From the NCBI GenBank assembly GCA_002419055.1, contig DIFI01000021.1, forward strand, positions 24,102-88,101: 64,000 nt of DNA. Reading direction: 5' to 3'. Position 1 is the first letter of the stretch, and each line of letters starts with the position of its first letter. Positions 1,174 to 20,722 of this stretch are shown piece by piece. The translations under genes were made by a program, and so were the position numbers. Source of the DNA: Peptococcaceae bacterium UBA5752. GTDB lineage: Bacteria; Bacillota; Dehalobacteriia; UBA4068. The notes below the pieces were generated by a model. It did not search any database. It saw nothing but the letters and a program-made list of their open reading frames with translations, and was not told where the DNA came from.

Positions 1174-1425
1174 GTGTCTAACTAAAGCACAGCGGTAATC
1201 TCTTGTATCATTGTTGTTACATAACAAAAATCCTTTTTATAGCTAATAATATATATTGTATCCGGCAAAGAATAATCTATAGTGTAAATAATTTTATAGA
1301 GGCCATTTACAATTATTTACAAGAATGGTATAATTAAACCGTTATATTTATTAATGTATAACGAATTGACGTGTGTCAATTTTCGCCATAACGGCTGATA
1401 AAAAATAGATATTGGGTGGGTGAAA

Positions 1426-2496
1426 ATGCATTTAAAAAACTGTTTGATACTGGCTTGTATTATATTTGGCATAGTATTTCTTCTTGGTTGTGATGCCAAA
1501 ACTGATGAAAATACTATTGCCGACTACTCTAATGAAGAGATAACTGTTTCCGGCCTTGCGGATGAGGATTTTACTGTCACTGTTGCGGACTTGGCCGCAC
1601 TGGACAGCGTTGAGCGCAGCGCTTCCGCCCAGCGCTCAAATGGAGAGGAAGTTTCTATTGACGCGGTCGGCCCCCTGTTGGATACTTTTTTAGCACAGTA
1701 TGGCAAAAGTCAGAGCGATTTTACCAGCATCCGCTTTACAGCTTTCGACAAATATTCCATTACTGTTGACAGTCAAGTGCTGGATAACAGGGAAATTGTG
1801 CTGGCGGTTGCGGATGGAGGCGATGCGCTTTCCAAAGATGACCAGCCGCTGCGGGTGGTGATACCGGGGGAGAGGGCGATGTACTGGGTTCGTCATCTTT
1901 GCCGCATTGATTTTGAAAGCGGCGAGACAACCAGTCAGTGCCGGAAGATGGTCTTTCTTTCCGCGGCAGTACAGACGCTCAAAAGCAGTGATTATGATTA
2001 TAACGGCGTAACGGATCAGGTGATTGCTGTCGGCGATTTGCTTGATGCTTATGCGGACAGTGAAAATGCCGATACGGTATCTCTGATTGCCGCCGACGGT
2101 CTGACAAAATCGGAAACCGCCGCCAACTTCCGTTCCGGGTTGCTTAAATACACGGGTGCGGATGCTCCGCGCTTTGTTGCCGATGAGCTTCCGGAAGGGA
2201 TGCAAATTTATGACTTGTTGATGATCGGTTATGGGCAGATGGAATTTCTAACGTTGGATAAACTGATTTCACTCTATGGAAACGAGGATGGTATTTTATT
2301 CTTTGATGTTACCCAAAAGGCTAACGGAGTAAGCGCGGAAAGTTATGTCTTCACTTGTCAGGATGGCAGCAGCGTTACGCTTCCCGTAGACGAGCTGCAG
2401 GATGCGACACTTTCTTTGGACGAAGAAGGCCGAGTTATTTTGCAACCTGCTAGCGGTGAGAAGGTAATTGACCTGCTGCAAATTGAGGCGAAATAA
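1426..2496 (+). CDS. Secreted lipoprotein with two tandem sulfite-oxidase/YedY-like (Oxidored_molyb-like) domains
   Basis: Lipobox FLLGC after a hydrophobic N-terminus. ATG 1426 is preferred over GTG 1420 given the upstream GGGTGGG. The motif QPLRVVIPGERAMYWVRHLCRIDF resembles the YedY/SO C-terminal strand. No Cys at the Moco-ligand position. Confidence 0.65.
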   Translation: MHLKNCLILACIIFGIVFLLGCDAKTDENTIADYSNEEITVSGLADEDFTVTVADLAALDSVERSASAQRSNGEEVSIDAVGPLLDTFLAQYGKSQSDFTSIRFTAFDKYSITVDSQVLDNREIVLAVADGGDALSKDDQPLRVVIPGERAMYWVRHLCRIDFESGETTSQCRKMVFLSAAVQTLKSSDYDYNGVTDQVIAVGDLLDAYADSENADTVSLIAADGLTKSETAANFRSGLLKYTGADAPRFVADELPEGMQIYDLLMIGYGQMEFLTLDKLISLYGNEDGILFFDVTQKANGVSAESYVFTCQDGSSVTLPVDELQDATLSLDEEGRVILQPASGEKVIDLLQIEAK

Positions 2497-3275
2497 TGAT
2501 AAAAAAACGCTGGCCATGGCTGTTAATAATAATACTGGCAGCGGTAGCAGCATATATCTCAGGCAGGCTGATGCAGCCAGCCTATACCCCTGTAATATAC
2601 ATTGTTGGCGATGTTGAGAAATGTTTAGAAACAAATGATATAGACAAGCTGGGGGATTTGCAACAGGTTGATTTTGATAGCGATACATATCAAGCGGTAA
2701 CACTTGCGGATGTTGTTGCCGCAGCGCAGCCCGCTGCACAAACCAAGAGGGTTCTGATGATTGCGGACGATGGGTTTTCGGTGGAGATAGCAGGGGATAC
2801 GCTGGATGATTGCTGGCTGACCTTTACCCCTAAAGATGGTTGGCGCGTTTTGGCTCCGCTGCATCCGCTCTCCGCCAACGGCACGCATATTTGGCGCATT
2901 GTGGTAGTTGCTGACAGTAGCAGCCAAACTGCTCTTACGGTAACTGCCGGCGGCGAAACGAGCAGCTTTACAATTGGACAATTGTATGCAGGAACAACAA
3001 TCAGCTTCCCTTATCCGGAAGGAACGGCGGAAAAGGCAACGGATGACGTTGTTTATTCCTCTACTGTCTATACCCGTCGTGATTGCCTGACATTGGCGCA
3101 GCTTGGCTGTGATGAGGCCGCTGAAATACAGATAAACGCGGCAAATGGTCAAAGTCTGACTGTGAACTCGTCCGAAACAGGGCTGTTCCAGCTGAACGGT
3201 AATAGTTTGAGTTATATCAATGCAATACAGCGCAAACAAATGGAAGATGTTGATGAAATTGTGGTACTGAAGTAA
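2496..3275 (+). CDS. N-terminally membrane-anchored protein with an SO/YedY-like half domain
   Basis: TAATG overlap with the upstream gene (translational coupling). N-terminal TM WPWLLIIILAAVAAYI. Motifs VTLADVV...VLMIADDGFSVEIAGD...THIWRIVVV. Confidence 0.55.
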   Translation: MIKKRWPWLLIIILAAVAAYISGRLMQPAYTPVIYIVGDVEKCLETNDIDKLGDLQQVDFDSDTYQAVTLADVVAAAQPAAQTKRVLMIADDGFSVEIAGDTLDDCWLTFTPKDGWRVLAPLHPLSANGTHIWRIVVVADSSSQTALTVTAGGETSSFTIGQLYAGTTISFPYPEGTAEKATDDVVYSSTVYTRRDCLTLAQLGCDEAAEIQINAANGQSLTVNSSETGLFQLNGNSLSYINAIQRKQMEDVDEIVVLK

Positions 3276-3351
3276 TTTTTTTACCGTTGTATATTCTTTT
3301 GTGAGAATAGTTTTGTACGCAAATAATAAAAAATAGTTTTTAGGAAAGATA

Positions 3352-5274
3352 ATGAACAAATTTAATTTCAAATCACAATGTTTATATAGTTCTAACATAA
3401 AATTGGTGACAATTGCCTTGCTAATGATTGCATTAATTGTTTTTGCTTGGCCTGCACAGCCAGCTTCGGCGGCTAATGCTTTGACCGTGCAGGTGAGCAA
3501 AGGCGGTGAAATCGCAAAAGTTGCAAGCTACAGCAAAGAAGATCTGGAAGCGCTGGGTACGGTGCAGCAGTATTATTCTTCGGTGGATGCTAACAGTGCA
3601 CCGGTAGTAGTTGTGGCGCGCGGCGTGGCCATATCTACCCTGATGGCCGATTTGGGTATTAATATCGCGGATGCTGAAACTTTGCGCTTTGCTTCCTCTG
3701 ACGGCGGCAACCGCAGCTATAGCGTAGCGACTTATGTTTCCGCAGCACGTTATTATTATCCGCAGATTGTAGACGGTTACGATGCGGATGCCGATGAAAT
3801 TCCGGCATTCGTAGCCGGTGCTGATCAAGAAAAAGTTAAAGTCAGCGCTATGTTGGCATTAGCCAGCTATGAAGGACGCTATCAATCGAAGCCAGACGCT
3901 TCACAAATGAGCTCTGCCAATGGTTTACGATTTTGCTATGGGCAAAGCGCTATTAACGAAGCGGTTTCCCTTAATTACAACAAATATATAAACAGCCTGA
4001 CTATTGTCCTCAAAAGCAGCAGTAGCTATCAACTGCCCGAAGAAGATGAGAGCAGTGGAGAAAGCAGCGGTGATACTGCCATACCCAGTACCGGTATTCC
4101 GGAAGTTCTGGATAGGGAAGGATTGATGGCGGATACGCTGACCATCACTGTGGGCTATTACGGCGGTACATATTATACAAAAAAGGTTTTTACCTTGGAA
4201 GAACTGCAGGCCATGGCCAATGTGCAGCAGGTATATAGCTGTATCGATAATATGCCGGCGGTATGTCTGGATGCAGCGGTTGGCGTGAGGCTAACGGATA
4301 TATTGGCGGCGGCTGGTATAGATGTCAATTCAGTGCAGAGCTTCCACTTTTATTGTGCGGATGTCTCCCGAACTTGGTATACGTCCATGAGTAAAACATA
4401 TTTGCTCGATACGCCGCGTTATTATTATCCTAATTTGCCGAAAAGCTGGGATTATGATGAAGCTAAGGCTATTTCCGGCGCGACTGCCGGTGCGCGGGAG
4501 GTTGATGTTATCTTAGCACTGCAGGATAAATGGCGGCGTTTTGCTATGGAAACGGATTATAGTGATCTTACCGATACAACCCGCTTTCGCTTGCTGTTCG
4601 GCCAAAGTGACGTCTATACCGTGGAGGGCTCCCGTTCCGCCAAATGGGTACATACCATAGCCGTCACGCTGGGCGGATCACCACCCAAGGGTGTTACTCT
4701 TAACGCCTCTGCTTTGGATCTGACAGTTGGCAGTGATTATCAGCTTTCCGCTACAGTGGAAAAGACAGATCAAACCACCGATACCCGCGTCATCTGGAGC
4801 AGCAGTGACGAAGATATTGTTTCCGTAGATAAATCAGGCAATATTACGGTTAAGGGCGACGGTCAAGCTACCGTTACCGCTACTACTGTTTTCGGTGGAT
4901 TGACTGCCACTGTGGTGATAAACGGCAGCACCGATGCGGCTGACAGTACCGCCACCGGCAGCAGTACCAATACCAATGGCAGTAACACAACCGGCGGCAG
5001 TAATTCTACGGAGGGCAAGGAGGATACCGATTCTGCTGATGCGGCGCAGACCGAAACCGGCGGCGTATATCGTATTTCGGTAGGTGGCTCGGATACAGCG
5101 AATAGTGAGGCAGGTGTTCAAAGGTGGCGGGACAGTGAAATGGCTGCCAACGCGGTAGCGCTTCCGGATATAGAAACGGATAGTCCTTTGATGAGGATTA
5201 CATTAATTGCAATACTGGCTTTATTTATAGTCGGTATTCTTGGCAGAATAATTATTTATCGTTTGGAGGTATGA
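3352..5274 (+). CDS. Secreted 640-aa surface protein: two RYYYP-type domains, Big_2 domain, S/T/G/N-rich linker, C-terminal TM anchor
   Basis: Signal peptide ending ASA/AN. Motifs ARYYYPQ and PRYYYPNL. Big_2-like VTLNASALDLTVGSDYQLSA...VTATTVFGGLTATVVI. C-terminal LIAILALFIVGILGRIIIYRLEV. Confidence 0.75.
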   Translation: MNKFNFKSQCLYSSNIKLVTIALLMIALIVFAWPAQPASAANALTVQVSKGGEIAKVASYSKEDLEALGTVQQYYSSVDANSAPVVVVARGVAISTLMADLGINIADAETLRFASSDGGNRSYSVATYVSAARYYYPQIVDGYDADADEIPAFVAGADQEKVKVSAMLALASYEGRYQSKPDASQMSSANGLRFCYGQSAINEAVSLNYNKYINSLTIVLKSSSSYQLPEEDESSGESSGDTAIPSTGIPEVLDREGLMADTLTITVGYYGGTYYTKKVFTLEELQAMANVQQVYSCIDNMPAVCLDAAVGVRLTDILAAAGIDVNSVQSFHFYCADVSRTWYTSMSKTYLLDTPRYYYPNLPKSWDYDEAKAISGATAGAREVDVILALQDKWRRFAMETDYSDLTDTTRFRLLFGQSDVYTVEGSRSAKWVHTIAVTLGGSPPKGVTLNASALDLTVGSDYQLSATVEKTDQTTDTRVIWSSSDEDIVSVDKSGNITVKGDGQATVTATTVFGGLTATVVINGSTDAADSTATGSSTNTNGSNTTGGSNSTEGKEDTDSADAAQTETGGVYRISVGGSDTANSEAGVQRWRDSEMAANAVALPDIETDSPLMRITLIAILALFIVGILGRIIIYRLEV

Positions 5275-5275
5275 C

Positions 5276-5908
5276 ATGTTTGCGGAAAATTTAAGTGTTG
5301 CCCTACGGGCAGTGGCAGAAAACCTGCGTAGTCCGGTGATGTGTATTCTGCTGCTGTTGATCATAATAGCGGTAGTAATGTTTGGCTCCATGATAGCGGA
5401 GATTTTTACCGAAAGAATGCGGCTCAAGGCAAAGATGCCCCGATTGGTGGATGATATTAAAGACGAAGATAAAGAGTTGGCGGATACTATCGAAAAAAGC
5501 GGATTGCTCAAGCGTCAGAAGAATGCCTTATTGGAATTGATAATTCATCCGGAATTGACACCTGTGATGCGTGAAGCTTTAGCCAGACGTCTGATTTTTG
5601 AGGAGCAGAACCATTATGACCGGATCGTTAAAATCACTGATTTGATTTCGCGGCTTGGCCCGATGCTGGGTCTGCTTGGTACGCTGATCCCCTTGGGGCC
5701 GGGGCTGATTGCCTTAGGACAGGGAGATACATATTCTTTATCTCAATCCCTGCTTACTGCCTTTGATACAACCATTGCAGGTTTGGCCTCAGCCGTACTG
5801 GCTTTTGTGATATCCGCTATCCGTAGGAGCTGGTACGAAAACTATATGACGATGCTCGAAGCTTTGATGGAATGTATATTGGATAGGGAGGCCGGCCATG
5901 CAAAATAG
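5276..5908 (+). CDS. MotA/TolQ/ExbB-family proton-channel protein (3 TM)
   Basis: GGAGGT RBS. The start lies 1 nt after the upstream stop. Family signature LGPMLGLLGTLIPLGPGLIALGQGD...LLTAFDTTIAGLASAV. Topology is TM1, cytoplasmic loop, TM2-TM3. Confidence 0.75.
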   Translation: MFAENLSVALRAVAENLRSPVMCILLLLIIIAVVMFGSMIAEIFTERMRLKAKMPRLVDDIKDEDKELADTIEKSGLLKRQKNALLELIIHPELTPVMREALARRLIFEEQNHYDRIVKITDLISRLGPMLGLLGTLIPLGPGLIALGQGDTYSLSQSLLTAFDTTIAGLASAVLAFVISAIRRSWYENYMTMLEALMECILDREAGHAK

Positions 5909-6221
5909 TTTAAGAGGCGGCGGCTTGCGAAGCGGCCGTACGCAAAGTGATTTTAATCCTATGGATGGTTTGGCTAATTTGGCCGACTGTATGCTGGTTT
6001 TGGCCTGTGGCCTGCTGCTTTCGTTGATTGTCAGCTGGAATCTGGATATCGCGGTGGACGAAACCGTGGCAAGTCCCAACGAAAGCGCTGTTAGCGAGGT
6101 AGATGGCGTGGAGAATAGCGATCTAAATTCCATAGATGAGAACAGCGGTTATAAGGAAATGGGAAAGGTTTATAAAGACCCAAAGACCGGGCAGCTTTAT
6201 ATGGTAATAGATGATAAATGA
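5898..6221 (+). CDS. ExbD/TolR-like single-pass protein with short acidic C-terminal domain
   Basis: Overlaps the exbB-like stop (ATGCAAAAT at 5898, with GGGAGG upstream). FNPMDGLANLADCMLVLACGLLLSLIV resembles the ExbD N-terminus/TM. The periplasmic part is only ~55 aa and D/E-rich. Confidence 0.55.
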   Translation: MQNSLRGGGLRSGRTQSDFNPMDGLANLADCMLVLACGLLLSLIVSWNLDIAVDETVASPNESAVSEVDGVENSDLNSIDENSGYKEMGKVYKDPKTGQLYMVIDDK

Positions 6222-6240
6222 TAAAGGGGGAAGGGATATT

Positions 6241-8229
6241 ATGAAAAAGATCAAGGGTATATTACTGGTATTATTGACATTGTCGCTGGTGCTTTTTGTA
6301 GCTCTGCCGGCTATGGCAATTGACCCGGTGGAGCCCAGCGACACTCTGGAAGTCTGCCTTAAAACGGCGGACGGTACAGTAACGCTGCATACTTACACAT
6401 TGGCCGAGATGGAGGCCCTAGCAGACGGGGAGGATATCTGCTATTCCGGTATTGATGCCATGCCATGCACGGTAAAAACCGTGGCCAGCGGCGTTTATAT
6501 CGAGGATCTTTTGGATGATGTAGCGCAGTATACCACTATGGACGTATGGGATTTTTCTAAGCTGCGTTTCACATCTACCGATGGCGCGACAGGCATCTTT
6601 ACCGAAGACGATCTCTTCTGCGACCGCTATTATTTTGCTGCACTTCACGAAGAAAGCGGCGGGCTAAATGAAGATGGTTTAGTAGATTACGATTATGGAG
6701 AGGGCGAATTGGTTCAGCCAATGCTTTCCATCAGTGCCGAGCAGGGTCGCCGTCCGATGCCGTCAGAATTCCGCGATGATTATAACCCGGAGCGCTATAC
6801 CATTCTTTTTGGTATAACTGAGGATGAAGTAGAAAACGCTACCCAGCGCGTTTCTCAGTACAAGCGCGGCGTATATAAAATGGTTATTGATCTGGGCAAT
6901 GTATCCGCGCCTCAAGTGGCTGTAACGGGCATTGCTCTTGATAGAACCAGCGACAAGGTTTATACCGGCAAATCGATCCAGCTTACAGCTATCATTAGTC
7001 CGAGTGATGCGACTAATACGGGGGTTACCTGGAGCAGCAGTGATCAGTCGGTAGCGAAGGTATCTTCCACAGGGGTTGTCACAGGGGTTGCCACAGGAAC
7101 AGTTACTATCATCGCTACAGCTGCCGGAAATACCGCATTTAGTGCATCCTGTAACGTAACCGTATCCAACCGGAGCGTATCGGTTTCGGGCGTTTCTTTA
7201 AGCCAAAGCAGCCTGTCATTGGGAGTAGGCGGTAAAAAAGAGCTGACCGCCACCGTACTGCCCGGCAATGCCGACGAGCGCGACGTGACTTGGTTAAGCA
7301 GCAATGAAAAAGTTGCAACTGTCGATGACGGTATGATCACTGCCGTTGCCGTGGGTCAGGCTACTATAACCGTCGAGACCTCTGACGGCGGTTACACCGC
7401 TGTATGCACGGTTACCGTCACAAATGAGGCGATTGCCGTCACCGGAGTGACGCTGAACCGTACTGCCGTATCACTAGCCAAAGGCAGCAGCTTCCAGCTT
7501 GTTGCCAATTTCAGTCCGGAGGGCGCTTCCAATATGGCTGTTGTTTGGAGCAGCAGCGCACCGGGCGTTGTTGCAGTGGATACCAATGGCCTACTTACTG
7601 CAAAGAATATCGGAACCTCGACTATTACCGTTCTGACAAGTGAAGGCAGCTTTACCGCGCAATGTCTGGTAAAGGTTGCGGATTCGGTCGAAGCTTTCAG
7701 TGATATATCGGGTAATTGGGCGAAGACGTATATTGAAAGCATGGTGGATGCAGGATTTATTAGCGGCTATACTGACGGCAGCTTCCGTCCTATGGCTAAC
7801 ATTACCCGTGCTGAATTCATAAGCATACTCATCCGCATCCTTCAAAGCGCCAAGGGTGAAACATTGCAAACAGGGCATGTATTTAACGATACGTCAGCAC
7901 ATTGGGCTAAGGACTATATTTCCACCGCGGTAGCACTTTCGATTACTTCCGGCTACGGCAACGGTAATTTTGGCCCCAATGACCCAATCACCCGCGAGCA
8001 GATAGCAGTAATGCTGACCAAGGCTGCGGATTCAAGCGGCAGCACCACCGCCACCAGCTTCACCGATGTAGCTAAGATTTCCTCCTGGGCGGTTTCTTCT
8101 GTTGCTTATGCTGCGGAACAGGGATGGATCAGTGGCTACAGCAATGGCAGCTTTGGTCCGCAAAGACAAGCCACCAGAGCAGAAGTATGTGCGTTACTCT
8201 GGCGTTTTTATCAACAGATCAATGGTTAA
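6241..8229 (+). CDS. SLH-anchored surface protein: RYYYP-type domain, 4x Big_2, 3x SLH
   Basis: ATG 6241 after GGGGGAAGGG. Signal peptide ...ALPAMA. Four repeats of the type VTGIALDRTS...VTWSSSD...ATGTVTI. Three C-terminal SLH motifs (FSDISGNWAKTYIE.., FNDTSAHWAKDYI.., FTDVAKISSWAV..). Confidence 0.85.
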   Translation: MKKIKGILLVLLTLSLVLFVALPAMAIDPVEPSDTLEVCLKTADGTVTLHTYTLAEMEALADGEDICYSGIDAMPCTVKTVASGVYIEDLLDDVAQYTTMDVWDFSKLRFTSTDGATGIFTEDDLFCDRYYFAALHEESGGLNEDGLVDYDYGEGELVQPMLSISAEQGRRPMPSEFRDDYNPERYTILFGITEDEVENATQRVSQYKRGVYKMVIDLGNVSAPQVAVTGIALDRTSDKVYTGKSIQLTAIISPSDATNTGVTWSSSDQSVAKVSSTGVVTGVATGTVTIIATAAGNTAFSASCNVTVSNRSVSVSGVSLSQSSLSLGVGGKKELTATVLPGNADERDVTWLSSNEKVATVDDGMITAVAVGQATITVETSDGGYTAVCTVTVTNEAIAVTGVTLNRTAVSLAKGSSFQLVANFSPEGASNMAVVWSSSAPGVVAVDTNGLLTAKNIGTSTITVLTSEGSFTAQCLVKVADSVEAFSDISGNWAKTYIESMVDAGFISGYTDGSFRPMANITRAEFISILIRILQSAKGETLQTGHVFNDTSAHWAKDYISTAVALSITSGYGNGNFGPNDPITREQIAVMLTKAADSSGSTTATSFTDVAKISSWAVSSVAYAAEQGWISGYSNGSFGPQRQATRAEVCALLWRFYQQING

Positions 8230-8259
8230 CGGGTAAATGTTTACCGGAAAGGAGCAGAT

Positions 8260-9687
8260 ATGAAGAAGTTAAAAAAGACGGGCCTGTTTTTCTGCGTCTT
8301 GGTGGCAATTTTGATCCCTACTATGTCCTGGGCGGGAGCAACAAGTAGTCTCGATATTACCGGCCCCTGTTACGAGATGCTTTCACCCACCAACAGCGCT
8401 ACTGAGATGGCAGTTACCTGGTGGGATGCGCTGGAGGTAAACACAGCCTCTGTGCAATACAGCACCAGTTCGAACTTTAGCAGTGGTGTTTTCAGTGTTG
8501 CAGCTACCTTATCCAAAAACGATACCACTAACGGATATAGCGCTTTTGCGGCAACGATGACCAATCTTACCGCTGATACTACTTATTATTACCGCGTTGG
8601 TAATGTCACCGCTTGGAGCGATACCAATAGTTTTACAACCGGTGATGCAGCCTCGGCCAGCAGCCTTTCCATCATGTATCTGGGCGATGCCCAGTATGCA
8701 AGCTATAATGCCGCAGTAGAGGAGTATGCTACCTGGGGTAGTTTGATCAATGGCGCATATACAAAATTTCCCAATCTTGATTTTGCGTTAATGGGCGGTG
8801 ATTTAGTTAGTCTAGGTCAGTCGGCTGTCGATTGGCAGCGTTTCTACAATAATGCTAGTCCGGTATTTTCCAAATTGCCTGTATTAGCAGTGCCCGGCAA
8901 CCATGAAAGCAATGCAACTTCCGGCAAGCCGGAGCTGTTCCTGAAACTGTTCGATTTGCCGACCAACGGCCCCACAGGTTTTGAAGAGGAATTCTATTCC
9001 TATGATTACGGAAACTGTCATATCGTTTGTTTGAGCAGCAGCATATTCCTCGATGAGCAATTAGCAGCCGGCACTATGACCGAAGCTGACTTCGACACGA
9101 TTAAGCAGTGGATTGCCAGTGATTTGGCTGATTCCGATGCAACCTGGAAGATTGTGGTCATGCACCATCCTGCTTATGCGGTAGTCAGCGACGACACTGC
9201 TGTTGATGTATTGGCGAACTGGGCGCCGGTTTTTGTCAATGCACAGGTAGACTTGGTCTTATGTGGTCATCAGCATGTTTATATGCGTACCGAAGCGATT
9301 AAGGGCGTTACCTATGTGATGGGCGTATCCGGCAGCAAGTTTTATGCGCCGGCTACTGTGTCCTATTCTGAGTGTATGATCGGCTATACCAGCAATTATG
9401 AAATCATTAACGCTGATAGCAACAGTTTGACGGTAACGGCTTATGATTCTACTGGTACCAGTTTGGATACAGTGACGATTAAACCAAAAAATAGGACCAT
9501 CACGCCGACTTGGCCTGAGGATATTGTCGGTGACCTCAACGGCGACGGGTCTATTACCTCTGCCGATGTAACACTACTGATTAGCGCGATTTTAACCAAT
9601 GCTGCTTATTCCACTGTCATGGATGTAAATGATGATGGAAAAGTAAACATCTGTGACGCTCATCAGCTTAGCTTAAGCTTACTATAA
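8260..9687 (+). CDS. Purple-acid-phosphatase-like metallophosphoesterase with C-terminal dockerin
   Basis: AAGGAG RBS and a signal peptide. Fn3-like PAP N-domain (TTYYYRVGN). Metallophos motifs GDAQY, GGDLVS, GNHE, MHHPAY, CGHQH. C-terminal DLNGDGSITSADVTLL and DVNDDGKVNICDAHQL dockerin repeats. Confidence 0.85.
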   Translation: MKKLKKTGLFFCVLVAILIPTMSWAGATSSLDITGPCYEMLSPTNSATEMAVTWWDALEVNTASVQYSTSSNFSSGVFSVAATLSKNDTTNGYSAFAATMTNLTADTTYYYRVGNVTAWSDTNSFTTGDAASASSLSIMYLGDAQYASYNAAVEEYATWGSLINGAYTKFPNLDFALMGGDLVSLGQSAVDWQRFYNNASPVFSKLPVLAVPGNHESNATSGKPELFLKLFDLPTNGPTGFEEEFYSYDYGNCHIVCLSSSIFLDEQLAAGTMTEADFDTIKQWIASDLADSDATWKIVVMHHPAYAVVSDDTAVDVLANWAPVFVNAQVDLVLCGHQHVYMRTEAIKGVTYVMGVSGSKFYAPATVSYSECMIGYTSNYEIINADSNSLTVTAYDSTGTSLDTVTIKPKNRTITPTWPEDIVGDLNGDGSITSADVTLLISAILTNAAYSTVMDVNDDGKVNICDAHQLSLSLL

Positions 9688-9704: not shown

Positions 9705-11402
9705 ATGCGAGTGAGTGATAAACTAAAAATCTTCGTTTTACTGTCTGTAATCTTTTGTTTGATATTGCTGCCGACTGTATGCTTGGCCGCCGGCACCAAA
9801 GTGTCGGATGCCGTCAATAATATATTCGTCTATGCTGACGATGCCACCGGCGCTCAGGTTTTACTTAAAGTCATTCCATTATCTACCCTTAAGTCAATGT
9901 CACATGGTAGTGATGGTACAGCCAATACCGACTATTACGGTTCTTTTCTTGACGCCTATAAAACGCCGACTTACTTAGAAGGGCAGGGCGTTACCATACC
10001 TGAGCTGCTTACCTATGTCAAAAAGAACTCTTTGGTGGCAGATGTTGGTTCGCTGACTTATGCCGGATCGGATATACTATATTTTACTTGCTGCGACGGC
10101 GCTTCCGTTAATTTTACCTATGATGCGCTGTATGGTACTGAATTAAACCCGGTGAACCGCTATTATTATCCAGCCTTATATGATTACTGGGACAGTGAAA
10201 ACGTTGAAGTGCCGGATGCTGATGAGGCTACAGTTTTGGCAAGCGGCATTTCGGCACCGGTTTATCTTGCAACCGTATCCAAGGGCGGACGGGTATTTGC
10301 CAGCGCCGGCGGCACAAATATTTCCTCTTATGTTACAGCTAACGATGGCGTGGTCAGCGGTTGCCTGGCCGGTCAACTTACGGATGAAGATGCGCTGCGT
10401 TTAATCTTTCCGCAGACTGCCAGCGATATTCAAAGTAGTACCGATACATTAAGTTTTATCAAAAAATGGGTGTATAAGGTCCGGCTGAAAACAGCTGAGA
10501 CTTCACCGATTGCCTCGCTTGGTACGATCAGCAATCCCACATGTACCTATACCCTGGACGGCACCACACTCACTATCACCATGAGTTGTGAGGATGCAAA
10601 TGCTTCTCTCTATTATTCAACCATCGGTGGTTATACCGCCACGCCGGTAAACCTCTATACCGAGCCGATAACCGTGGAAAATTACGATACCAGCAAGCCA
10701 TTCACCATCAGCGTGATGGCGGTACGGGAAGGTTATGTGAACAGTACTGCTATATCCGCAAGCTCCGCCAATTATACCGATGGCGAGGGCGCGCCCAGTT
10801 TCACCTATGCTTTAACTTCATCCGATGCTACGCCCACGGTTGGCACCGCTTTTGATCTTTCGGTGACCCTTGCTGCCGATAAAGATTATACGCTTTACGG
10901 TGCCGAATACCGCGTTTCGGTACCGGCAGCTTATACAGTCAACAGCGTTACTCTCGGCACCGGCTGGCAATATGGTACAGCCACTTACGCTAATGAAGCG
11001 ACAATTGTCACATTTACCTATCTGAATACTACAGGGACTGCTGAAACCGCAACTACTGCCGTGCCGGTGGGGTCAATTAATTTGATTCCGGTTACGGCAG
11101 GTGATACTTCCGTTACGGTCAGTGAAGCGATTGTAACCAAAAGCGATGCTACCGCTTACACCAATATTACAGCCGCAGATTCAAGTTTCACGGTTGAGAG
11201 CAATATCACGCTCGGCGATGTGGATAGTGACAGTTATATCACTATGGGCGATGCCCTGCAAGTATGTAAGACTGTGGCTAAGGTAGTGACTCTAAACGAT
11301 GATCAGAAAAAAGCGGCTGATGTAGACAAAGACGGCTATATCACCATGAGCGACGCACTACTCATCTGCAAATATGTAGCCAAAGTTATCAGCGAATTTT
11401 AG
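9705..11402 (+). CDS. Secreted adaptor-like protein: RYYYP-type domain, Fn3/CHB_HEX_C-like, cohesin-like domain, C-terminal dockerin
   Basis: RBS GGAAGGGGGA and a signal peptide. NRYYYPALYD. Cohesin-like FDLSVTLAADKDYTLYGAEYRVSVPAAY...VTFTYLNTTGTAE. Dockerin-like DVDSDSYITMGDALQVCK and DVDKDGYITMSDALLICK. Confidence 0.8.
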   Translation: MRVSDKLKIFVLLSVIFCLILLPTVCLAAGTKVSDAVNNIFVYADDATGAQVLLKVIPLSTLKSMSHGSDGTANTDYYGSFLDAYKTPTYLEGQGVTIPELLTYVKKNSLVADVGSLTYAGSDILYFTCCDGASVNFTYDALYGTELNPVNRYYYPALYDYWDSENVEVPDADEATVLASGISAPVYLATVSKGGRVFASAGGTNISSYVTANDGVVSGCLAGQLTDEDALRLIFPQTASDIQSSTDTLSFIKKWVYKVRLKTAETSPIASLGTISNPTCTYTLDGTTLTITMSCEDANASLYYSTIGGYTATPVNLYTEPITVENYDTSKPFTISVMAVREGYVNSTAISASSANYTDGEGAPSFTYALTSSDATPTVGTAFDLSVTLAADKDYTLYGAEYRVSVPAAYTVNSVTLGTGWQYGTATYANEATIVTFTYLNTTGTAETATTAVPVGSINLIPVTAGDTSVTVSEAIVTKSDATAYTNITAADSSFTVESNITLGDVDSDSYITMGDALQVCKTVAKVVTLNDDQKKAADVDKDGYITMSDALLICKYVAKVISEF

Positions 11403-11463: not shown

Positions 11464-14400
11464 GTGTTACAAAAGTTGAAGAAAAAGAACCTGACGGTGT
11501 TAGTAATCTTCATAATGGTTCTAGCCCTTTGCGTTGCTTTACCGATTCTGGCGACAGCGGAAGGCACTGCGACCGTTACAGTGGGCAGTACGACTACAGC
11601 AGCAGCTCCCGGAGATAGTATAACCATCCCCGTTGTCATTACCAGTAACCCCGGTATTACTGCATATGGATTTGCGATTTCGTATGATAGCTCAAATTTG
11701 ACATTGGATAGTATTTCGAAAACGGATAATGATTCGAATACGACCGATCTTTGCACTTCCGGTAGTTTTACCCCCAATACAGCATCTGCAGGCACTGGCT
11801 ATGTTAGCTGGCTGGATGGCGGTGCGGATATTACCGGCACCGGAAATTTGTTCTATTTAACTTTCACCGTCAAGAATACTGCGATGGGTGGCAATTATGC
11901 TGTTTCCTGCACTTTAACCGACGGTAGTGCTGCTAACTGCAAAAACTATGCCGGGTCAAATGTTGGCGTATCCTTCACTGACGGCATTATTGAGGTAGTA
12001 GCACCCGACACAACCGCTCCGACAATGACGAGCGTTGCTCCTGGCGAGGGCTTAGTAGCGCTGGGCGCTAGCGATAACCTCGTGCTTACCGTAACGGCAG
12101 ATGACGACGCGGCGCTTTCCGAGCTGGAGATCGACCACAGCATGGAGGGCACGCTGCCGGAATTCAGCGTCTACGCCGACATTGCGAACCCCTACGGCAC
12201 GGCAGATGATAAAGCTCAGTTTGAATCTGCCGGTGTTTCCGTAACCTACGCTGATGGCGTTTGGACGATTGATTTTGGCAGCACGATAACGAATACTATA
12301 GTGAATAACGGCGGCATCACCTTTTACATGGTGCTCAAGGATACGTCCGGCAACAGCTGGGGCAGCATGAGCCCGACTACTGCCGAGAATACCTATGCCT
12401 ATACCATAGCGCGGGACACAACCGCTCCGACTATGACAAGCGTTGAACCGGCTGAAGGCGCGGTGGAGCTGGACGCCAGCGAGGACTTTGTACTGACCGT
12501 GACGGCGCATGACGATATTGAGCTGTATGAGCTTGAGATCGACCACAGCATGTCAAGCACATTGCCGGAATTCAGCGTCTACGCCAACAGCGAAAACCCC
12601 TATGGCACAGCTGAGGATAAAGCTGAATTTGAAGCCGCCGGTGTTTCCGTGACCTACGGCGGCGGCGTCTGGACGATCGATTTTGGCGATACAGCAACGG
12701 ATGCTTTCGTGGCAAACGGCGGCATAACCTTATACATAGTAGTCAAGGATATGGCCGGCAACAGCTGGGGCAGCATGAGCCCGACTACTGTCGAGAATAC
12801 ATATGCATACACGATTACCCGCAAATACATTGCGGCGGCTAATTTCACTGACGGAGTCTATGCAATTACATCGGGCGGCGAATATAAGCTCGCTACTGAT
12901 GCGGCAGGGACGATTCAGATCAGCACCACCGATCCGGTGACTATTAGCGGCAATGGCACGACCGGCACCGCTAACAGTGGCCTTAGCATTGATAATACCG
13001 TAGCTGGTGCGGACCTGACCATAGAAGACCTCTATATCACCGGCGCAGTTACCGGTTCCGGTATGGTTGAATTTACCGGCAAAGACAATAAACTGTCGCT
13101 TTCCGGTGTCAGCACCCTTCAACGTATCGGAGGATCAGTTTGGGGCAATGCACTGATCCATGTGCCTGCGACTGCTGATCTGACCATTGACGGCGACGGT
13201 ACAGTCTATCTGGCCCAAGATGGCGACGGTGCTGCCATCGGCGGCAATCCTTCCGAGATCAACGGTAATATCACTATTAACGGAGGCGAAATCTTCTGCC
13301 GCAGTAATAAAACAGGCTCCAGCATCGGCGGCGGCCAGAGCGCTAACGGTGGTAATATTACCATCAACGGCGGTGAACTCAATATATTCCACAACGCGCG
13401 CGGCGCCATTTTGGGCGGCGGCGGCTATAGTGGCAGTTTAGTAGGCAACGGCGGTACTGTAACCATGACCGGCGGCAATGTCTCCCTGTTTGTAAATTTC
13501 ACAGGCGCGGCCATTGGCGGCGGCGGCGGGAGCAATTCTGCTCTGGAGCAGGACGGAGGAGACCTTTATATCACCGGCGGCTCGCTCAAAACCTATATCA
13601 ACAGCAATGCACTCAGTTTCTGGGGACTCACAACCGAAGGCGTCACGCCTGTTATCATCACCGCGGATAAATCAACCGGCGTGGGCGGAAATGCAGTCCA
13701 TCTGCTTACTATGGATGTGAGCGGTGTTACGGCCAATGACACCGGCGCCGCTTATGTGGCTTATCTGGATAATGAAACCACCGATCCCATTTATTCCGGT
13801 GGGTTGCACAGCTATGCTTATACCGGTACCAGCACCAACGCTATGACATATTGGCAGAAGTCTACCACGGATAACAACCTCTACCTCTATGTCACCGGTG
13901 AGAATCATACTGTCACCGTTAATGATCAAAAATTCAATGTCACTTGGGATTCCGGCACTTCCGGCTTCAGTGTTGCGGCGGCTCCTAAAATCTGGGATGG
14001 CACTGCGAATACAGGTTGGTATAATACCACTGATACGGAATTCCATCTCACCATGGGTAACCAACTGGCCGGACTTGCGCAGATCGTCAACGGTACGGCA
14101 ACCGGCATCACTCAAGACAGTTTCAGCGGCAAGACCGTCAATATTGATAACGATATCTATCTTAACGACGGTACAACCAGTAATAATTGGACGCCTATCG
14201 GTGATATTACACACCATTTTGACGGTGTGTTTAACGGCGGCGGCTACAATATATACGGTATGAAAATTATTGCAACAAAGGGCTATGCCGGTTTATTCGG
14301 CAACGTATCCGGTACAGTTAAGAACTTTAAACTTTACGGATCTGTTACTATTAATTCGGCGATTGACGGCGATATTGCAAAAGGTAGTAAAACTAATACC

Positions 14401-17400
14401 GATAACGACTTTGTCGGTGCGGCAGTTGGTAAACTCAATGCGGGCGGTACGATCAGTAACGTCATCAACTATGCTCCCATTGAAGCCAAGGAATGCATGA
14501 ACGTCGGCGGTATCGTCGGTTTTGTCGGCACGCCCGTCACGTATGGGACGAAATCAGACGCTTATGCCGAATATAACTCCAACCCCTCCGGCAGTAACAC
14601 CTATGTGCTCAACTGCGGCAATAACGCCACTGTACATGGTTTTTACAAGCTGGGCGGTATCGCCGGTGAAAGCGCGGGTATTGTTATGTACTGCTACAAT
14701 ACCGGCTACATCCTCCCGCACATGCACGGTTCCGGCGGCGGCTGGGGCGGCATTGTCGGACGCAACGGCAACAACAACACAGCGACCGAGGTCGGCACCA
14801 TTGCCTATTGCTGGAACAGCGGTACAGTTACCGACAACGGCATGAACGATGACCACAACGAGACGATCAAGTGGTATGGCGGTATCACTGCCTTTTGCAA
14901 CAGTAAGTCTTCTGTACACAACTGTTACAACATCGGCGCAATTCCTGCCGGACGCAACACTTTTTCGTCCATCATTGGTAACTGCGAAAGCACTATGGTT
15001 TACAACAACTGTTCGCTGATTTCCACCAGCATCAATAGCGACAGCACATATGAGAAAAACTTGGGCATACAGTTTGAGGAATCTGATTTCAAGAGCGCTG
15101 CCAATACGGATACCTCTATATTGACTGTGCTGGGCCCTGTTTTTGTCGCTGATACCGGAAATATTAACAACGGATATCCTGTCCTGCGCTGGCAGGCGGG
15201 CAGCAGCGCCGAACCGACGCTAACCTCTGTTTCGTTATTCTCGGTGCCGACAAAAATCGCTTATTATGAGCTGGAGACCTTTAATCCTGCAGGTATGAAG
15301 CTTAAAGCAACATACAGTGACGGAACTTATGCAATATTATCGGGCGGCTTCACTTATCCCACCGATCCGTTGTCTGACAGCACTAACAGCGTTACCGTTA
15401 GCTATGGCGGTTTTGATATTACTCAAGCCATCACGGTCTACAATCTCGATTCTATCGCTGTTACCACACAGCCTACCAAAACGGTTTACAATGCCACCGA
15501 TTTATTTAACAGATCCGGTATGGTAGTTACCGTTTACTACAGCGATAATACTTCGAAGGTGATTTATTCATATACTTATCCTACAACTCCTTTAACTGAT
15601 GACATGACCAGCGTTACTATCGGCTATGGCGACAAGACCACTACCCAGCCGATCACGGTCAATGCTTTAGGCTTGACCGTGATCGCGGTAACAACTGTGC
15701 CGACCAAGACTTTCTATCTCCCCGACGAATCATTTGATAATACCGGTATGGTAGTTAATGCAACATATAACAGTGCAGTGGTACAGCCTTTGGCTGCGGA
15801 AGACTACGTCGTCACTCCCGCCTCACTGACCATTGGTACAACTGCGGTCACCATCAGCTTTACCTATCTTGGCGTAACTCAGACCGCGTCTACTCCGGTG
15901 ACAGTGATATCTGCAACACCTGCCTTGGTTGACGGGTATTATCAGATAGTGAGCGCAGATGATCTTCGCTGGTTCGCCGATTATGTGAGCGTCCAGGGCA
16001 ATACAACTGCCTGCGCCAAGTTGGTCAATGATATTACCCTCACCTCTGATTGGACGCAGCCGATCGGTAACAGTACCAATAAGTTTGCCGGTACTTTTGA
16101 CGGTAACGGCAAGACGATCAGCGGCCTAGATAATGCTGCGGTGACCACACAGAATTTTGGTCTTATTGGCTATGGCTTAGGGGCTACTGTCAAAGACCTT
16201 ACAGTCGGCGGCGAAATCAGCACGACCGCCTCTAATACCGGTTTGGTTGCCGGTTGGGCCGACGGTTGCACTTTTACCAATATCACAGCCAACGGTTCGC
16301 TGACCAGAGCCAGCGGTACCCTAAACAATACTGCCGGTATCACAGGTTACGCCTGCAATGCCAGCGTATTAACTAACTGCGTGAACAATGCCGCTATTAC
16401 CTCCGGCGGTCAGTATACAGGCGGTATCGCCGGCAGCGCAGACGGCGCGACCAGCTTCTCCGGCTGTATCAATAACGGTGTGATCAATACTACCCATCGG
16501 TATATAGGTGGCATCGTCGGTTCGTTCGGCGGTACGGGCAACATCACATCCTGTATCAATAAAGGTGCAGTTACTGCCACCTATAACGTTGGTGGTATCG
16601 CCGGTAGATATAACTCAACCGGCAGCATGGAGAATTGCTATAACAGCGGTGCCATCGTCGCTACCTTATCATCAACATCTACTGCTTACGCTGCAGGCGG
16701 CGTGATCGGTTATTTCGGCGGCGCCGGTACTATAGACACCTGCTACAACAGCGGTGATGTCACCGGCGCTATCGGTAATGTCGGCGGTGTGGTCGGCTGT
16801 ATGTATGCGGCCAATAGCATACTGACCAACAGTTATAATACCGGCGACGTCTGTTACACCGGCAATGCCACTACTCCTTGCGTGGGCGGCGTTGTTGGCG
16901 CGACCAATGATGTTAGCTGCACGATCCAGAACTGTTACAACCGCGGCGCGGTAACCTTTGCTACAACCAAACCTTTGATCGGCTCCGTCGTCGGTACACC
17001 CAAGATCGGATATACCGCCATCAGCAATAACTATTATCTCAACACCACTTCTGCTGATGCGACATCTACAGCCAAAACTGCCGCTGAACTGAAGAATCTT
17101 GCTGCCACTTTGGGCGCAAGCTACAAGGCAGGCGGCATTTCACCTATCTTCACCTGGCAGCCGGATGAAGTATTTACCTCCGCAGCACCGGTAGTGAACG
17201 TAGATACTGTTACCGCCGATGTTCCGGATACGATCGTCATTGGCGCTAATGCCAATGTGGAAATCAACGCTTCGGCGGTGACTGTGGAAGATATCAACAC
17301 ATCAAATGTTTCAATTCCCGCAGCTTTGGTTGAGAATCTGGACAATGCCCAATCAGTCACCATTGTGACCAACATGGGTAATATCACATTTGACAACGCT

Positions 17401-19384: not shown

Positions 19385-20722
19385 ATGAAACGATTTACAA
19401 TTACTATTATCGTTTGCATATTGATCTTTGCTTTGAGTATCTCCACCGCTTTGGCTGTTGATAACAGCAGAACATATTCTTTTCAACTCACCTCCAATGG
19501 CAGCAGTACTGCTGCCATTGGAGTGGGGGATATGATTACGGTGAAGTTTACTCTGGCGGCAGACAACAGCTATGCTTTGTATGCGATGCAGAATGAGATT
19601 AAGTATGACAGCCGCTATTTGCAATATGTTGATGGAAGCCTTAGTATGACCTCCGGTTTTAATTCCGGCTTTCGGGATATGGAGGATGGCATCAATAAAC
19701 TGGTGCTGATGAATTATGTTTCCGATACAGCAGAGGGAGAAACCATAAACTCCAGTGTCGTGGTGGGAACCTTCCAGTTGAAGGCCATCGCTAATGGAAC
19801 TTCGACTGTCAGCAACGAGGATTATTATTGCACAACCAAAACCGGTGCAAATAATTACACTGCTACCGCCAGTGATCTTATTGTCAACATTAAATCTTCC
19901 GGCGGCGGTGGCGGCGGTAGTAGTGTCACTTATTACACCATCAACGCCAGCGCCGGCGAGGGTGGCAGCATATCGCCTTCCGGCAGCGTCAGCGTAGCTC
20001 AGGACGGTTCACAAACTTTCACTATAAACCCCAACTATAGATATATTATAGAAGACGTACAGGTAGATGGCAAAAGCGTCGGCGACGTCAGCACATATGC
20101 CTTCTCCGCTGTCACTGCCAACCACACCATAAAAGCAACGTTCATTGCGGGAGAAGAGGAGCCAAACCTCACCGATCAATTCACCGACCTTGTCCCCGGC
20201 GCCTGGTATATAAACGGCATCAATTATGTTTTGCAGGCTGGACTGTTTAACGGTACCTCGGCAACCAGATTTAGTCCTGATGCCAATATGACGAGATCTA
20301 TGCTGGTAACGGTATTGTGGCGTTTAGACGGCACGCCTGACGCAACAGTAGACACCATCTTTAATGATGTGGCAGACGGTCTCTGGTACAGCGACGCTAT
20401 CGAATGGGCTGCGGCCAATAATATCGTCAACGGCTATGGCAACGGTAGGTTCGGTACCAATGACAGCATCACGCGCGAACAGATGGCGGTAATCTTATAT
20501 AACTATGCCAAAATTAAAGGTTACGATGTCAGCCAAACCACTTCACTCAGCAAATACACCGACACCGGCGATATTTCCGATTGGGCCAGCACAGCTATGG
20601 CCTGGGCCAATGCTACCGGCCTTGTCAACGGACGCACCGCTACAACTCTCGCTCCCGGCGGTACTGCCACAAGAGCTGAAGTTGCTACGATCTTAATGCG
20701 CTTTATCGAATATTACGTTTAA
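19385..20722 (+). CDS. Anchoring scaffoldin-like protein: cohesin-like domain + InlB-B-repeat-like middle domain + 3x SLH
   Basis: AGGAG RBS and a signal peptide. Cohesin-like MITVKFTLAADNSYALYAMQNEIKYDSRYLQYVDGS. Gly8 linker. Three SLH motifs (FTDLVPGAWYING.., FNDVADGLWYSDA.., YTDTGDISDWAST..). Confidence 0.85.
   Translation: MKRFTITIIVCILIFALSISTALAVDNSRTYSFQLTSNGSSTAAIGVGDMITVKFTLAADNSYALYAMQNEIKYDSRYLQYVDGSLSMTSGFNSGFRDMEDGINKLVLMNYVSDTAEGETINSSVVVGTFQLKAIANGTSTVSNEDYYCTTKTGANNYTATASDLIVNIKSSGGGGGGSSVTYYTINASAGEGGSISPSGSVSVAQDGSQTFTINPNYRYIIEDVQVDGKSVGDVSTYAFSAVTANHTIKATFIAGEEEPNLTDQFTDLVPGAWYINGINYVLQAGLFNGTSATRFSPDANMTRSMLVTVLWRLDGTPDATVDTIFNDVADGLWYSDAIEWAAANNIVNGYGNGRFGTNDSITREQMAVILYNYAKIKGYDVSQTTSLSKYTDTGDISDWASTAMAWANATGLVNGRTATTLAPGGTATRAEVATILMRFIEYYV

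Follow-up and report, generated by a model that had tools for sequence, protein, structure and literature searches.

We describe three adjacent genes in a 64,000-nucleotide (nt) stretch of DNA from Peptococcaceae bacterium UBA5752 (the window, to which all positions refer unless a locus is named), which encode a large surface protein anchored by a C-terminal helix, a protein of the MotA/TolQ/ExbB family and a small DUF2149 protein. We put the chances at about even that this triad is the membrane core of a proton-driven, TonB-like system that acquires a molybdenum- or tungsten-pterin (Mo/W-pterin) cofactor or its metal. The hosts are mostly Gram-positive anaerobes that have no outer membrane, which for the source organism is taken from its closest relatives only. 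Our confidence differs between the parts of this reading. It is quite probable that the MotA-like and DUF2149 proteins form a functional stator, we are evenly divided on a TonB-like coupling of that stator to the upstream protein, and we lean slightly towards a role of the protein family related to Mo/W cofactors. The triad and the module at the end of its first gene are as follows.

3352..5274, + strand: open reading frame (ORF) for a type-I membrane protein of 640 amino acids (aa)
5125..5271, + strand: conserved C-terminal module of the 640-aa protein (juxtamembrane motif, helix, tail)
5276..5908, + strand: ORF for a MotA/TolQ/ExbB-family protein, 210 aa (PF01618)
5898..6221, + strand: ORF for a DUF2149 protein (HmuV family), 107 aa (PF09919)

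The three ORFs are present as a preliminary description of this DNA gave them, and their close packing is as it said. The TGA stop of the 640-aa gene (5272-5274) is followed by one base and then the ATG at 5276, and 11 nt are shared by the 210-aa and 107-aa genes. The gap to the next gene, for a protein with surface-layer homology (SLH) repeats, had been put at 20 nt and is in fact 19 nt, the DUF2149 stop being at 6219-6221 and the most likely SLH-protein start, which has the ribosome-binding site AAGGGGGAAGGG, being the ATG at 6241. Each triad start has a Shine-Dalgarno sequence in front of it, that for ATG 5276 (GGAGG) lying inside the end of the 640-aa gene and that for ATG 5898 (GGGAGG) 6 nt 5' of the start. 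The window sequence is identical to a 161-kb metagenome contig of the Joint Genome Institute (JGI). The public JGI gene call for the DUF2149 gene begins at 5961 and gives 86 aa, as against 107 aa from 5898; the start at 5898 is more likely because of its ribosome-binding site and because homologues align from residues 2-17, and it restores the basic cytoplasmic N-terminus.

The ExbB/TolQ-like assignment of the 210-aa protein holds, as it passes the Pfam gathering score for MotA_ExbB (PF01618; E=3e-11, 43.6 bits, cut-off 22.9). A profile of 18 homologues matches MotA (9luc, E=7e-4) and, over the full length, E. coli ExbB (5sv0, E=8e-4). The hydropathy scan gives hydrophobic segments at about residues 20-42, 126-148 and 160-183, and the predicted topology is of ExbB/TolQ type, in which helices 1 and 2 are separated by a large cytoplasmic loop. 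Conservation is high in helices 2 and 3 (GPMLGLLGTLIPLGPG ... SLLTAFDTTIAGL), and T136 and T166, which may be the counterparts of ExbB T148 and T181, are invariant in the 18 homologues. In all 3349 homologues of the protein were detected, with 59-100% identity among the matches listed. Matches of the MotA-like profile to Protein A are spurious and come from summed weak helical repeats in the cytoplasmic loop. An anti-phage stator like that of Zorya was also considered and rejected, there being no PADLOC match for any of the three triad proteins.

The 107-aa protein had been described as ExbD-like with a truncated acidic tail. The likeness stands for the transmembrane helix only. With regard to family the protein belongs to DUF2149 (PF09919; E=8e-12, 45.7 bits, cut-off 27.1, profile positions 1-90 of 92), and there is no match to ExbD (PF02472) at E<=0.1 in Pfam or at E<=10 in a sequence search of the PDB. 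By hydropathy it has a basic N-terminus, one helix at about residues 23-48 and an acidic tail of 57 aa, which holds 13 Asp/Glu and 5 Lys/Arg. The helix carries the motif N-L-x-D-x-M-L-V-L, the D-x-M-L-V-L part of which is common to ExbD (D-V-M-L-V-L). P21, D30, M32 and L33 are invariant and N27 is found in 77 of 78 sequences; the membrane Asp, conservation of which had been raised as a question, is D30 and is present in all 78. Hhalign lays DUF2149 residues 25-44 on ExbD residues 20-39 (ExbD reference sequence checked against PDB 6tyi) with D30 over D25, in a weak alignment (E=0.0036, probability 9%).

The DUF2149 tail is mostly variable and acidic, with a conserved C-terminal hairpin motif, G-x-V-Y-x-D-x-x-T-G-x-x-Y. 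A resemblance of this motif to a propeller blade was found only with designed 'Cake' propellers, with weak repeats of about 3-4 bits each, and is spurious. The best 150 of 434 relatives (clusters at 50% identity) all have lengths of 78-181 aa, so that the short tail is a trait of the family and not a truncation, and a mis-called or truncated small gene is ruled out by the same lengths. The literature on DUF2149 places the family in hmu operons of Bacteroidota, and we found no paper on it in Firmicutes by title.

The 640-aa protein has a signal peptide (residues 1-41, ending ...AQPASA/AN), two domains related to sulfite oxidase (SUOX) and to the pterin-binding protein PruR (domain 1, 43-220, and domain 2, 262-440), a Big_2 immunoglobulin-like (Ig) domain (447-523), a disordered linker rich in Ser, Thr, Gly, Asn and Asp (534-610), and one C-terminal helix (612-639, or about 612-634 by hydropathy) with the short tail RIIIYRLEV. 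Over the triad, hydropathy gives a C-terminal helix in this protein, three helices in the 210-aa protein and one in the 107-aa protein. In the AlphaFold model (mean predicted local distance difference test score, pLDDT, of 83) the domains at 43-220 and 262-440 are similar alpha/beta structures, and Foldseek with this model finds sulfite dehydrogenases and Big_2 structures. The C-terminal module consists of W592-R593..M597..A601, the helix with Gly628 and the tail Y-R/K-x-E-V. W592, R593, M597, A601 and Gly628 are at least 90% conserved in 96 closer homologues, in which the preceding linker is not conserved; over 76 genome loci at greater distance, all that remains is the helix Gly (at least 70%) and M...A..L (at least 40%).

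This protein had been likened to partners of TonB/TolA type, its C-terminal anchor excepted. The anchor is indeed C-terminal, the spacer is disordered, and there is no TonB or TolA match in Pfam. Judged from sequence, the translational coupling, the upstream position and the conserved C-terminal motif support the 640-aa protein as the likely third partner of the stator. We also considered the C-terminal helix as a sorting signal of the sortase LPXTG or a similar type and reject this as improbable from the sequences: the LPDIE of the window protein is not conserved as LPXTG in homologues, and a signal that is cleaved would have no need of conservation in the juxtamembrane motif and in the cytoplasmic tail Y-R/K-x-E-V, both of which show it.

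Relatives occur in the genomes of at least 560 species. For synteny we used a sample of 80 genome loci (one genome per species scanned; individual loci are numbered with the prefix L), which come from Oscillospiraceae, Anaerovoracaceae, Mogibacterium, Peptococcaceae, Lachnospiraceae and Coriobacteriia. The gene order of the triad recurs in nearly all of this sample. DUF2149 lies after the MotA-like gene in 77 of the 80 loci, and a protein of 350-930 aa with a C-terminal helix and basic tail precedes the MotA-like gene in 63 of the 74 loci that have enough upstream sequence when a strict hydropathy cut-off is applied, or in about 70 of the 74 when judged by eye. No motility, secretion or division genes recur among the clustered ORFs of the 80 loci, nor does any diguanylate cyclase or kinase partner.

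The loci of Coriobacteriia type (L037, L062 and L080) are a variant in which the protein 5' of the MotA-like gene shows no sequence relationship to the 640-aa protein, although its C-terminal helix is kept in L037 and L062. In these loci NEAT is matched consistently, if below threshold, by the small protein that follows DUF2149 (E 2-4e-4), and there are CWB2 wall-binding repeats in the giant protein. In L037 the genes run as follows.

L037 722-10879: CWB2 giant protein, helix-anchored protein, MotA-like protein, DUF2149, NEAT-like protein, Peripla_BP_2, FecCD

As these variants have a NEAT-like protein in place of the PruR-like lipoprotein described below, and L037 keeps the importer, the data suggest that the stator module has been combined with more than one kind of ligand-binding module, in the way of TonB systems.

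The triad of the window lies among genes for surface proteins, several of which had been passed over in the preliminary description as carriers of the same SUOX/PruR-like domain as the ectodomain of the 640-aa protein. These neighbours are listed here.

1420..2496, + strand: lipoprotein of 356-358 aa with lipobox LLGC; N-terminal PruR-like domain and two more domains
2496..3275, + strand: 259-aa protein with an N-terminal helix and no Pfam family
6241..8229, + strand: SLH-anchored surface protein with a PruR/SUOX-like domain, Big_2 repeats and three SLH repeats (Pfam)
8260..9687, + strand: secreted metallophosphoesterase like purple acid phosphatase, with a dockerin (Pfam)
9705..11402, + strand: secreted 565-aa protein with a C-terminal dockerin and an N-terminal region related to domain 1 of the 640-aa protein
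11464..19356, + strand: 2630-aa surface protein, cohesin at the N-terminus and dockerin-like repeat at the C-terminus
19385..20722, + strand: protein with a cohesin and three SLH repeats (Pfam)

The N-terminal domain of the SLH protein is homologous to domain 2 of the 640-aa protein (BLASTP E=2e-14), and domain 1 is matched by the N-terminal region of the dockerin protein at 9705 (BLASTP E=1e-4). The lipoprotein at 1420 matches Oxidored_molyb in Pfam with E=7e-10 and its model has a pLDDT of 91. Small one-domain versions of it are conserved companions of the triad in other genomes, and a sequence profile of these small lipoproteins matches SorA (E=1e-7) and PruR (7kom, E=4e-6). The PruR-like domains are about 140-180 aa long, as is PruR, while catalytic SUOX domains have about 250 aa. 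The 43 homologues of the 1420-type lipoprotein have no conserved Cys beyond the lipobox. The small lipoproteins have a Cys in 23 of 37 sequences; the window has Ser at this position, and the alignment does not place the Cys on the molybdenum-ligand Cys of SoxC. Signals of the PruR-like proteins are of Sec or lipoprotein type, the twin-arginine motif (S/T-R-R-x-F/L) being absent from them. The sequences thus identify the surface domains as PruR-like, degenerate SUOX folds and not as catalytic molybdoenzymes, because of these signals and because no conserved Cys is at the molybdenum-ligand position. PruR itself has a degenerate SUOX fold for which periplasmic pterin binding has been shown experimentally, its ligands being small pterins other than the molybdenum cofactor (Moco), for which the deep cleft is missing (PMC11194511). 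The 1420-type family has an invariant D-x-Y (D108, Y110) and W154; any correspondence of these to the residues that hold the pterin in PruR is conjectural.

Several of the other surface genes also have relatives in other genomes. The 259-aa protein is homologous to part of a 493-aa protein of Clostridium ragsdalei (tblastn E=9e-30), and in C. ragsdalei, D. acetoxidans and Syntrophomonas wolfei the gene after the 1420-type one encodes a relative of 480-493 aa, that of D. acetoxidans having a weak Phosphodiest match. Esterases of the 8260 type are found in Sporobacter, Formimonas, S. wolfei and D. acetoxidans in addition to those counted below, and giant proteins like that at 11464 follow the triad in 31 of the 80 loci. 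In S. wolfei (L091 6245-16584) the surface genes are present, and among them is one for a relative of the 640-aa protein in which the C-terminal helix is conserved.

For the neighbour counts all ORFs of the 80 loci were clustered and the recurrent clusters annotated, with the following result.

ATP-binding cassette (ABC) ATPase: 43 of 80 loci
Peripla_BP_2 lipoprotein: 41 of 80 loci
FecCD permease: 38 of 80 loci
FecCD or Peripla_BP_2 (type-II ABC importer): 46 of 80 loci
Small PruR-like lipoprotein, usually immediately 3' of DUF2149: 32-40 of 80 loci
Giant surface protein: 31 of 80 loci
Crp-type regulator: 14 of 80 loci
Tungsten aldehyde:ferredoxin oxidoreductase (AOR): 13 of 80 loci
Esterase like purple acid phosphatase: 9 of 80 loci

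The importer genes are mostly directly 5' of the gene for the big surface protein. The permease is assigned to the FecCD family (E=1e-85). With a profile of the binding protein the best characterised match in the PDB is MolA (HI_1472, E=5e-33), and the binders of siderophores, haem and B12 rank well behind it; three uncharacterised structures match far better than MolA, and the match is below every NCBIfam equivalog cut-off. An S-component of the energy-coupling factor (ECF) transporters (PF09819) is beside DUF2149 or PruR-like genes in ten distinct loci, of which eight belong to the set of 80, and its gene is often followed by one for a membrane-anchored SUOX-like protein. The co-directional cluster of C. 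ragsdalei P11 (L092 3529-18088) brings most of these genes together. It opens with moeA, FecCD, NTPase_1, binding protein and ATPase, continues with a 731-aa protein, MotA-like, DUF2149, ECF S-component, SUOX-like, EcfA, EcfA' and EcfT, and has the 1420-type lipoprotein and further genes at its end. C. ragsdalei P11 is a cultured acetogen and is therefore a good experimental entry point. Examples of AOR genes beside the module are at L090 9476-14416, L072 10460-12283 and L089 11757-13679, and that of L090 sits with genes for a ferredoxin, a NuoF-like protein and a 2Fe-2S thioredoxin-like protein.

In Rfam scans that covered about 75 loci there was, besides tRNAs, essentially one riboswitch class, that for Moco or the tungsten cofactor, Tuco (RF01055). 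It is at gathering level in L003, L013, L034, L046, L056, L072, L073 and L076 (E 7e-7 to 4e-15), and a covariance model built from these matches adds L007/L010, L083 and L089 (E <=2e-8), for a total of 11 loci, all with the aptamer on the operon strand. The aptamer is at the 5' end of the triad operon, with or without an importer in front, in L007, L013, L034, L056, L072, L073 and L089; L076 has the same layout, but with a same-strand ORF just upstream. We regard eleven strand-matched aptamers as a clear enrichment, because, with a few Moco aptamers in each genome, about one match would be expected by chance in this amount of sequence, which is rough reasoning and not a computed statistic. Forms with and without P3 are both present, of which the P3-containing form is associated with Moco and the P3-lacking form with Tuco (Regulski et al., PMC2408646). 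In the same study Moco riboswitches classically control molybdate and tungstate transporters and also precede genes for Moco-using enzymes, and S. wolfei has a triple Moco-RNA operon with genes of unassigned function. Control by cobalamin was considered and set aside, with a single marginal riboswitch match (L037, 32.6 bits, cut-off 31.5).

The mechanism that we propose is as follows. The MotA/ExbB-family and DUF2149 proteins would be a proton-conducting stator, driven by protonation of Asp30 as in ExbB-ExbD, TolQ-TolR and MotA-MotB. The 640-aa protein would be the force transmitter, in the role of TonB or TolA with the orientation reversed: its C-terminal helix and juxtamembrane motif would dock on the stator, the flexible linker of about 75 residues and the Ig domain would cross the wall, and the two PruR-like domains, putatively pterin-binding, would be at the tip. 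The PruR-like lipoprotein and the SLH- and dockerin-anchored proteins could then be a capture and relay layer. The cargo may be an Mo/W-pterin compound (Moco, Tuco, molybdopterin or a precursor) or its Mo or W, and proton-driven movement would strip tightly bound ligand from surface binders or foreign proteins and pass it inwards. In related genomes it would be handed to the MolA-like type-II ABC importer, the ECF transporter or both. Force might be needed for the stripping of very tight binders or foreign proteins, or for pulling through a thick wall and S-layer. What the data establish is the gene structure, the families and folds, the conserved synteny and, in homologous loci, the association with the riboswitch, transporters, moeA and AOR. 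Complex formation, the use of protons, the identity of the ligand and the inward direction are all steps that we infer, and we presume that the window copy, with no riboswitch or importer adjoining it, does the same job.

The preliminary description had proposed a stator driven by the proton motive force that serves a surface-protein complex, and this is still the best reading of the triad. Its suggested outputs (surface display, adhesion, or functions like those of GldLM or Tol-Pal) find no support, and an acquisition role is favoured because of the type-II ABC and ECF importers, the Moco riboswitches, the PruR-like folds, moeA and AOR, the context being one of nutrient or cofactor acquisition.

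Several observations weigh against our proposal. In the window no ABC or ECF importer and no Moco gene adjoins the triad, and there is no riboswitch at gathering level, none at E<=5 in 700-3450 and none with our own covariance model. Over the wider set the riboswitch is present in only 11 of about 85 distinct loci, and in S. wolfei there is no MotA-like or DUF2149 gene within 10 kb of the surface genes. Homology of DUF2149 to ExbD lacks statistical support in the sequence comparisons, as the hhalign probability and the absence of Pfam and PDB matches given above indicate. Physical contact of the 640-aa protein with the stator is itself a deduction. By analogy with PruR, which binds non-Moco pterins and has no deep Moco cleft, any binding of Moco here is putative. 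The MolA-like binder fits a plain oxyanion as cargo at least as well as a pterin, and there is no evident reason why uptake should use mechanical energy where there is no outer membrane.

The first of the alternatives keeps the machine and changes the cargo to molybdate, tungstate or thiomolybdate, with an importer of MolBCA type and SUOX-like domains that bind the oxyanion. The active-site region of SUOX is an oxyanion pocket. MolA as the closest characterised binder structure (E=5e-33) and the metal-inserting MoeA encoded in the C. ragsdalei cluster would be accounted for in this way, and molybdate and tungstate transporters are the classical targets of Moco riboswitches (PMC2408646). It is nevertheless unlikely in our view, if with a real chance of being right, since the closest fold is that of a pterin binder, the recurrent ECF S-components are typically vitamin or cofactor carriers, the three uncharacterised structures match the binder far better than MolA does, and a small oxyanion should not require giant wall-anchored proteins and a motor. 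It is also conceivable that the stator energises the display, movement or maintenance of an S-layer or cohesin-dockerin assembly, in the manner of GldLM or Tol-Pal and with no transport. SLH, cohesin, dockerin, CWB2 and giant surface proteins do accompany the triad in many loci, and the window has no importer. However what recurs beside the triad is importers, binding proteins and a cofactor riboswitch, and not motility, secretion or division genes, and there are no PADLOC, Zorya-like or other matches, so that we consider this improbable.

Slightly less credible again is that the SUOX-like proteins are true surface molybdoenzymes (MsrP-like repair enzymes or sulfite or sulfur oxidoreductases), the stator aiding their assembly or turnover and the riboswitch matching cofactor supply. 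The names would fit, as there are Oxidored_molyb matches in Pfam and NCBI names such as 'molybdopterin-dependent oxidoreductase', and Moco riboswitches precede genes for Moco-using enzymes as well (PMC2408646). Against this are the lack of a conserved Cys outside the lipobox, the Cys of the small lipoproteins (23 of 37) being off the SoxC ligand position, and the domain length of about 140-180 aa as in PruR and not about 250 aa. Enzymes with Moco are normally exported folded by the twin-arginine (Tat) route, and the signals here are of Sec or lipoprotein type with no twin-arginine motif; the importers in the same operons would also be left unexplained. To the last alternative we give the least credence, namely that the window copy handles a tetrapyrrole (haem or corrinoid) as Hmu does, or senses a pterin in the way of PruR-DcpA. 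HmuU and HmuV are in the same two Pfam families, neighbouring proteins in homologous loci have Shr-like_HID matches, the Coriobacteriia variant has its NEAT-like protein and marginal cobalamin riboswitch, and PruR is a signalling protein (PMC11194511). However the window cluster has no CobN/HmuS, NEAT or haem-related gene, every riboswitch match in Firmicutes is of Moco type, and no diguanylate cyclase or kinase partner recurs. A broader idea, that MotA/ExbB-DUF2149 pairs of HmuUV class are general proton-powered cofactor harvesters, the Firmicute form being pterin-based and its sisters tuned to tetrapyrroles, is offered tentatively, as a possibility that we would not yet expect to hold.

In the cluster as a whole (1420 to 20722) all genes are on one strand, with gaps of at most 76 nt, and one candidate for the operon start was found.

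1306..1334, + strand: sigma-70-like promoter match, TTTACA-17-TATAAT with TG

This is the best match in the region, scoring 11/12 about 90 nt 5' of the first gene of the cluster; promoter-like sites in the region occur in the number expected by chance, and its candidacy comes from the match to the consensus alone. Upstream of the cluster is an AT-rich leader of 600 nt (812-1419, + strand) with a Lys-rich ORF of 44 aa (920-1054, JGI call), which no Rfam family matches, and directly before the leader is a gene for a DUF6320 zinc-ribbon membrane protein (104-811, + strand). The region 8260-20722 (+ strand) has the form of a cellulosome-like cohesin-dockerin assembly with no glycoside hydrolase, its parts being the dockerin esterase, the dockerin PruR-like protein, the 2630-aa cohesin giant and the cohesin-SLH anchor; the cohesin-SLH protein at 19385 is presumed to be the wall anchor for the dockerin proteins of the cluster. 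A second metagenome contig has the same locus (L002 10966-19807), with the SLH, dockerin and giant genes split into several ORFs, which could be due to frameshifts, assembly errors or gene decay. The only Rfam match at gathering level in the whole window is a tRNA gene (22388-22461, - strand). At 31974-33827 (+ strand) a single ORF of 617 aa has TruB domains followed in frame by RibF FAD synthetase and riboflavin kinase, and is apparently a truB-ribF gene fusion. The remainder of the window consists of housekeeping genes.

There is a realistic chance that the system is functionally a new category. Stators of the MotA/ExbB/TolQ class power flagella, TonB-dependent uptake, Tol-Pal, gliding with type 9 secretion and Zorya defence, and to our knowledge such jobs, the flagellar motor aside, belong to bacteria with an outer membrane. 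We also know of no bacterial route for uptake or salvage of a Mo/W cofactor. If the broader idea of general cofactor harvesters is right, this would be the first known bacterial salvage of molybdopterin, Moco or Tuco, and the first TonB-like energised nutrient capture in bacteria that have no outer membrane, with sister variants that are NEAT-like and possibly under a B12 riboswitch (Coriobacteriia) or use HmuS and haem (Bacteroidota). A conserved stator module with a third partner in at least 560 species, many from gut or rumen, would open a new functional class and would give the uncharacterised HmuUV of Bacteroidota a testable mechanism. Salvage of the cofactor is directly testable in Moco-riboswitch operons that join pterin-binding surface proteins, importers and moeA, and would be of relevance to acetogens and syntrophs, which rely on W and Mo enzymes. 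In the literature we found no paper that describes the module in Gram-positive bacteria or Moco uptake by bacteria, none that combines MotA/TolQ/ExbB with molybdopterin oxidoreductase or Ig-like annotations, and none that links a Moco riboswitch to ExbB/TolQ or to uptake of Moco. A survey of riboswitch regulons has transporters for B12, thiamin, riboflavin, queuosine and folate and none for Moco (PMC3766115).

Compared with known systems, the triad and its neighbours belong with PF01618, PF09919 and the PruR-like fold, and not with ExbD, TonB, Hmu or catalytic SUOX. The nearest pair is HmuU/HmuV (PG1555/PG1556 of Porphyromonas gingivalis and BT_0491/0492 of Bacteroides thetaiotaomicron), which has the same two Pfam families in the same order and is likewise within an operon tied to the harvest of a metal-containing cofactor. 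However the hmuYRSTUV operon of Bacteroidota works in bacteria with an outer membrane, where HmuR is a TonB-dependent receptor, HmuY a hemophore and HmuS a CobN-like dechelatase. There is no HmuY, HmuR, HmuS/CobN or haem-related family in the window cluster and no HmuY, HmuR or HmuS in the recurrent clusters of the 80 loci; in their place are PruR-like surface proteins, SLH and dockerin anchors and, in relatives, Moco riboswitches.

The likeness to ExbB-ExbD-TonB and TolQ-TolR-TolA is in the combination of an ExbB-family channel and a single-pass partner that has a membrane Asp near the cytoplasmic end, in a third single-pass protein with a long flexible spacer and a distal binding domain, as in TonB and TolA, and in the genetic link to uptake of a scarce cofactor by importers of BtuCD/FecCD type, as for TonB. 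The differences are that DUF2149 has no folded periplasmic domain of about 90 aa and is missed by ExbD models, and that the 640-aa protein is anchored at its C-terminus, with no TonB_C, no Pro-rich rod and no outer-membrane receptor to open. The preliminary description had allowed that a canonical tonB gene and TonB-dependent receptors might explain the pair, and there is no TonB, TonB-dependent receptor or ExbD among the window proteins scanned.

In the case of the surface domains the comparison is with PruR of Agrobacterium, Vibrio and Klebsiella (PDB 7kos, 7kp2 and 7rkb), a single-domain signalling protein of Proteobacteria that is paired with a diguanylate cyclase and binds monapterin or neopterin, in A. 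tumefaciens between Y104 and W160 and with a hydrogen bond from N102. Here the domain is multiplied on wall- and membrane-anchored proteins, is linked to a stator and importers and in relatives is regulated by Moco riboswitches. MolBC-A of Haemophilus influenzae (HI1470-1472) resembles the importers of the homologous loci, the binders of which match MolA and the permease of which is of the FecCD family; no NCBIfam equivalog is reached, however, three uncharacterised structures are closer, and the importer is absent from the window. The Isd/NEAT relay is comparable in having repeated ligand-binding domains that span the wall and feed a Peripla_BP_2/FecCD importer. Transfer in Isd is passive and its proteins are sortase-anchored, whereas the binding domain of the present system is PruR-like and is obligatorily accompanied by a proton-channel pair.

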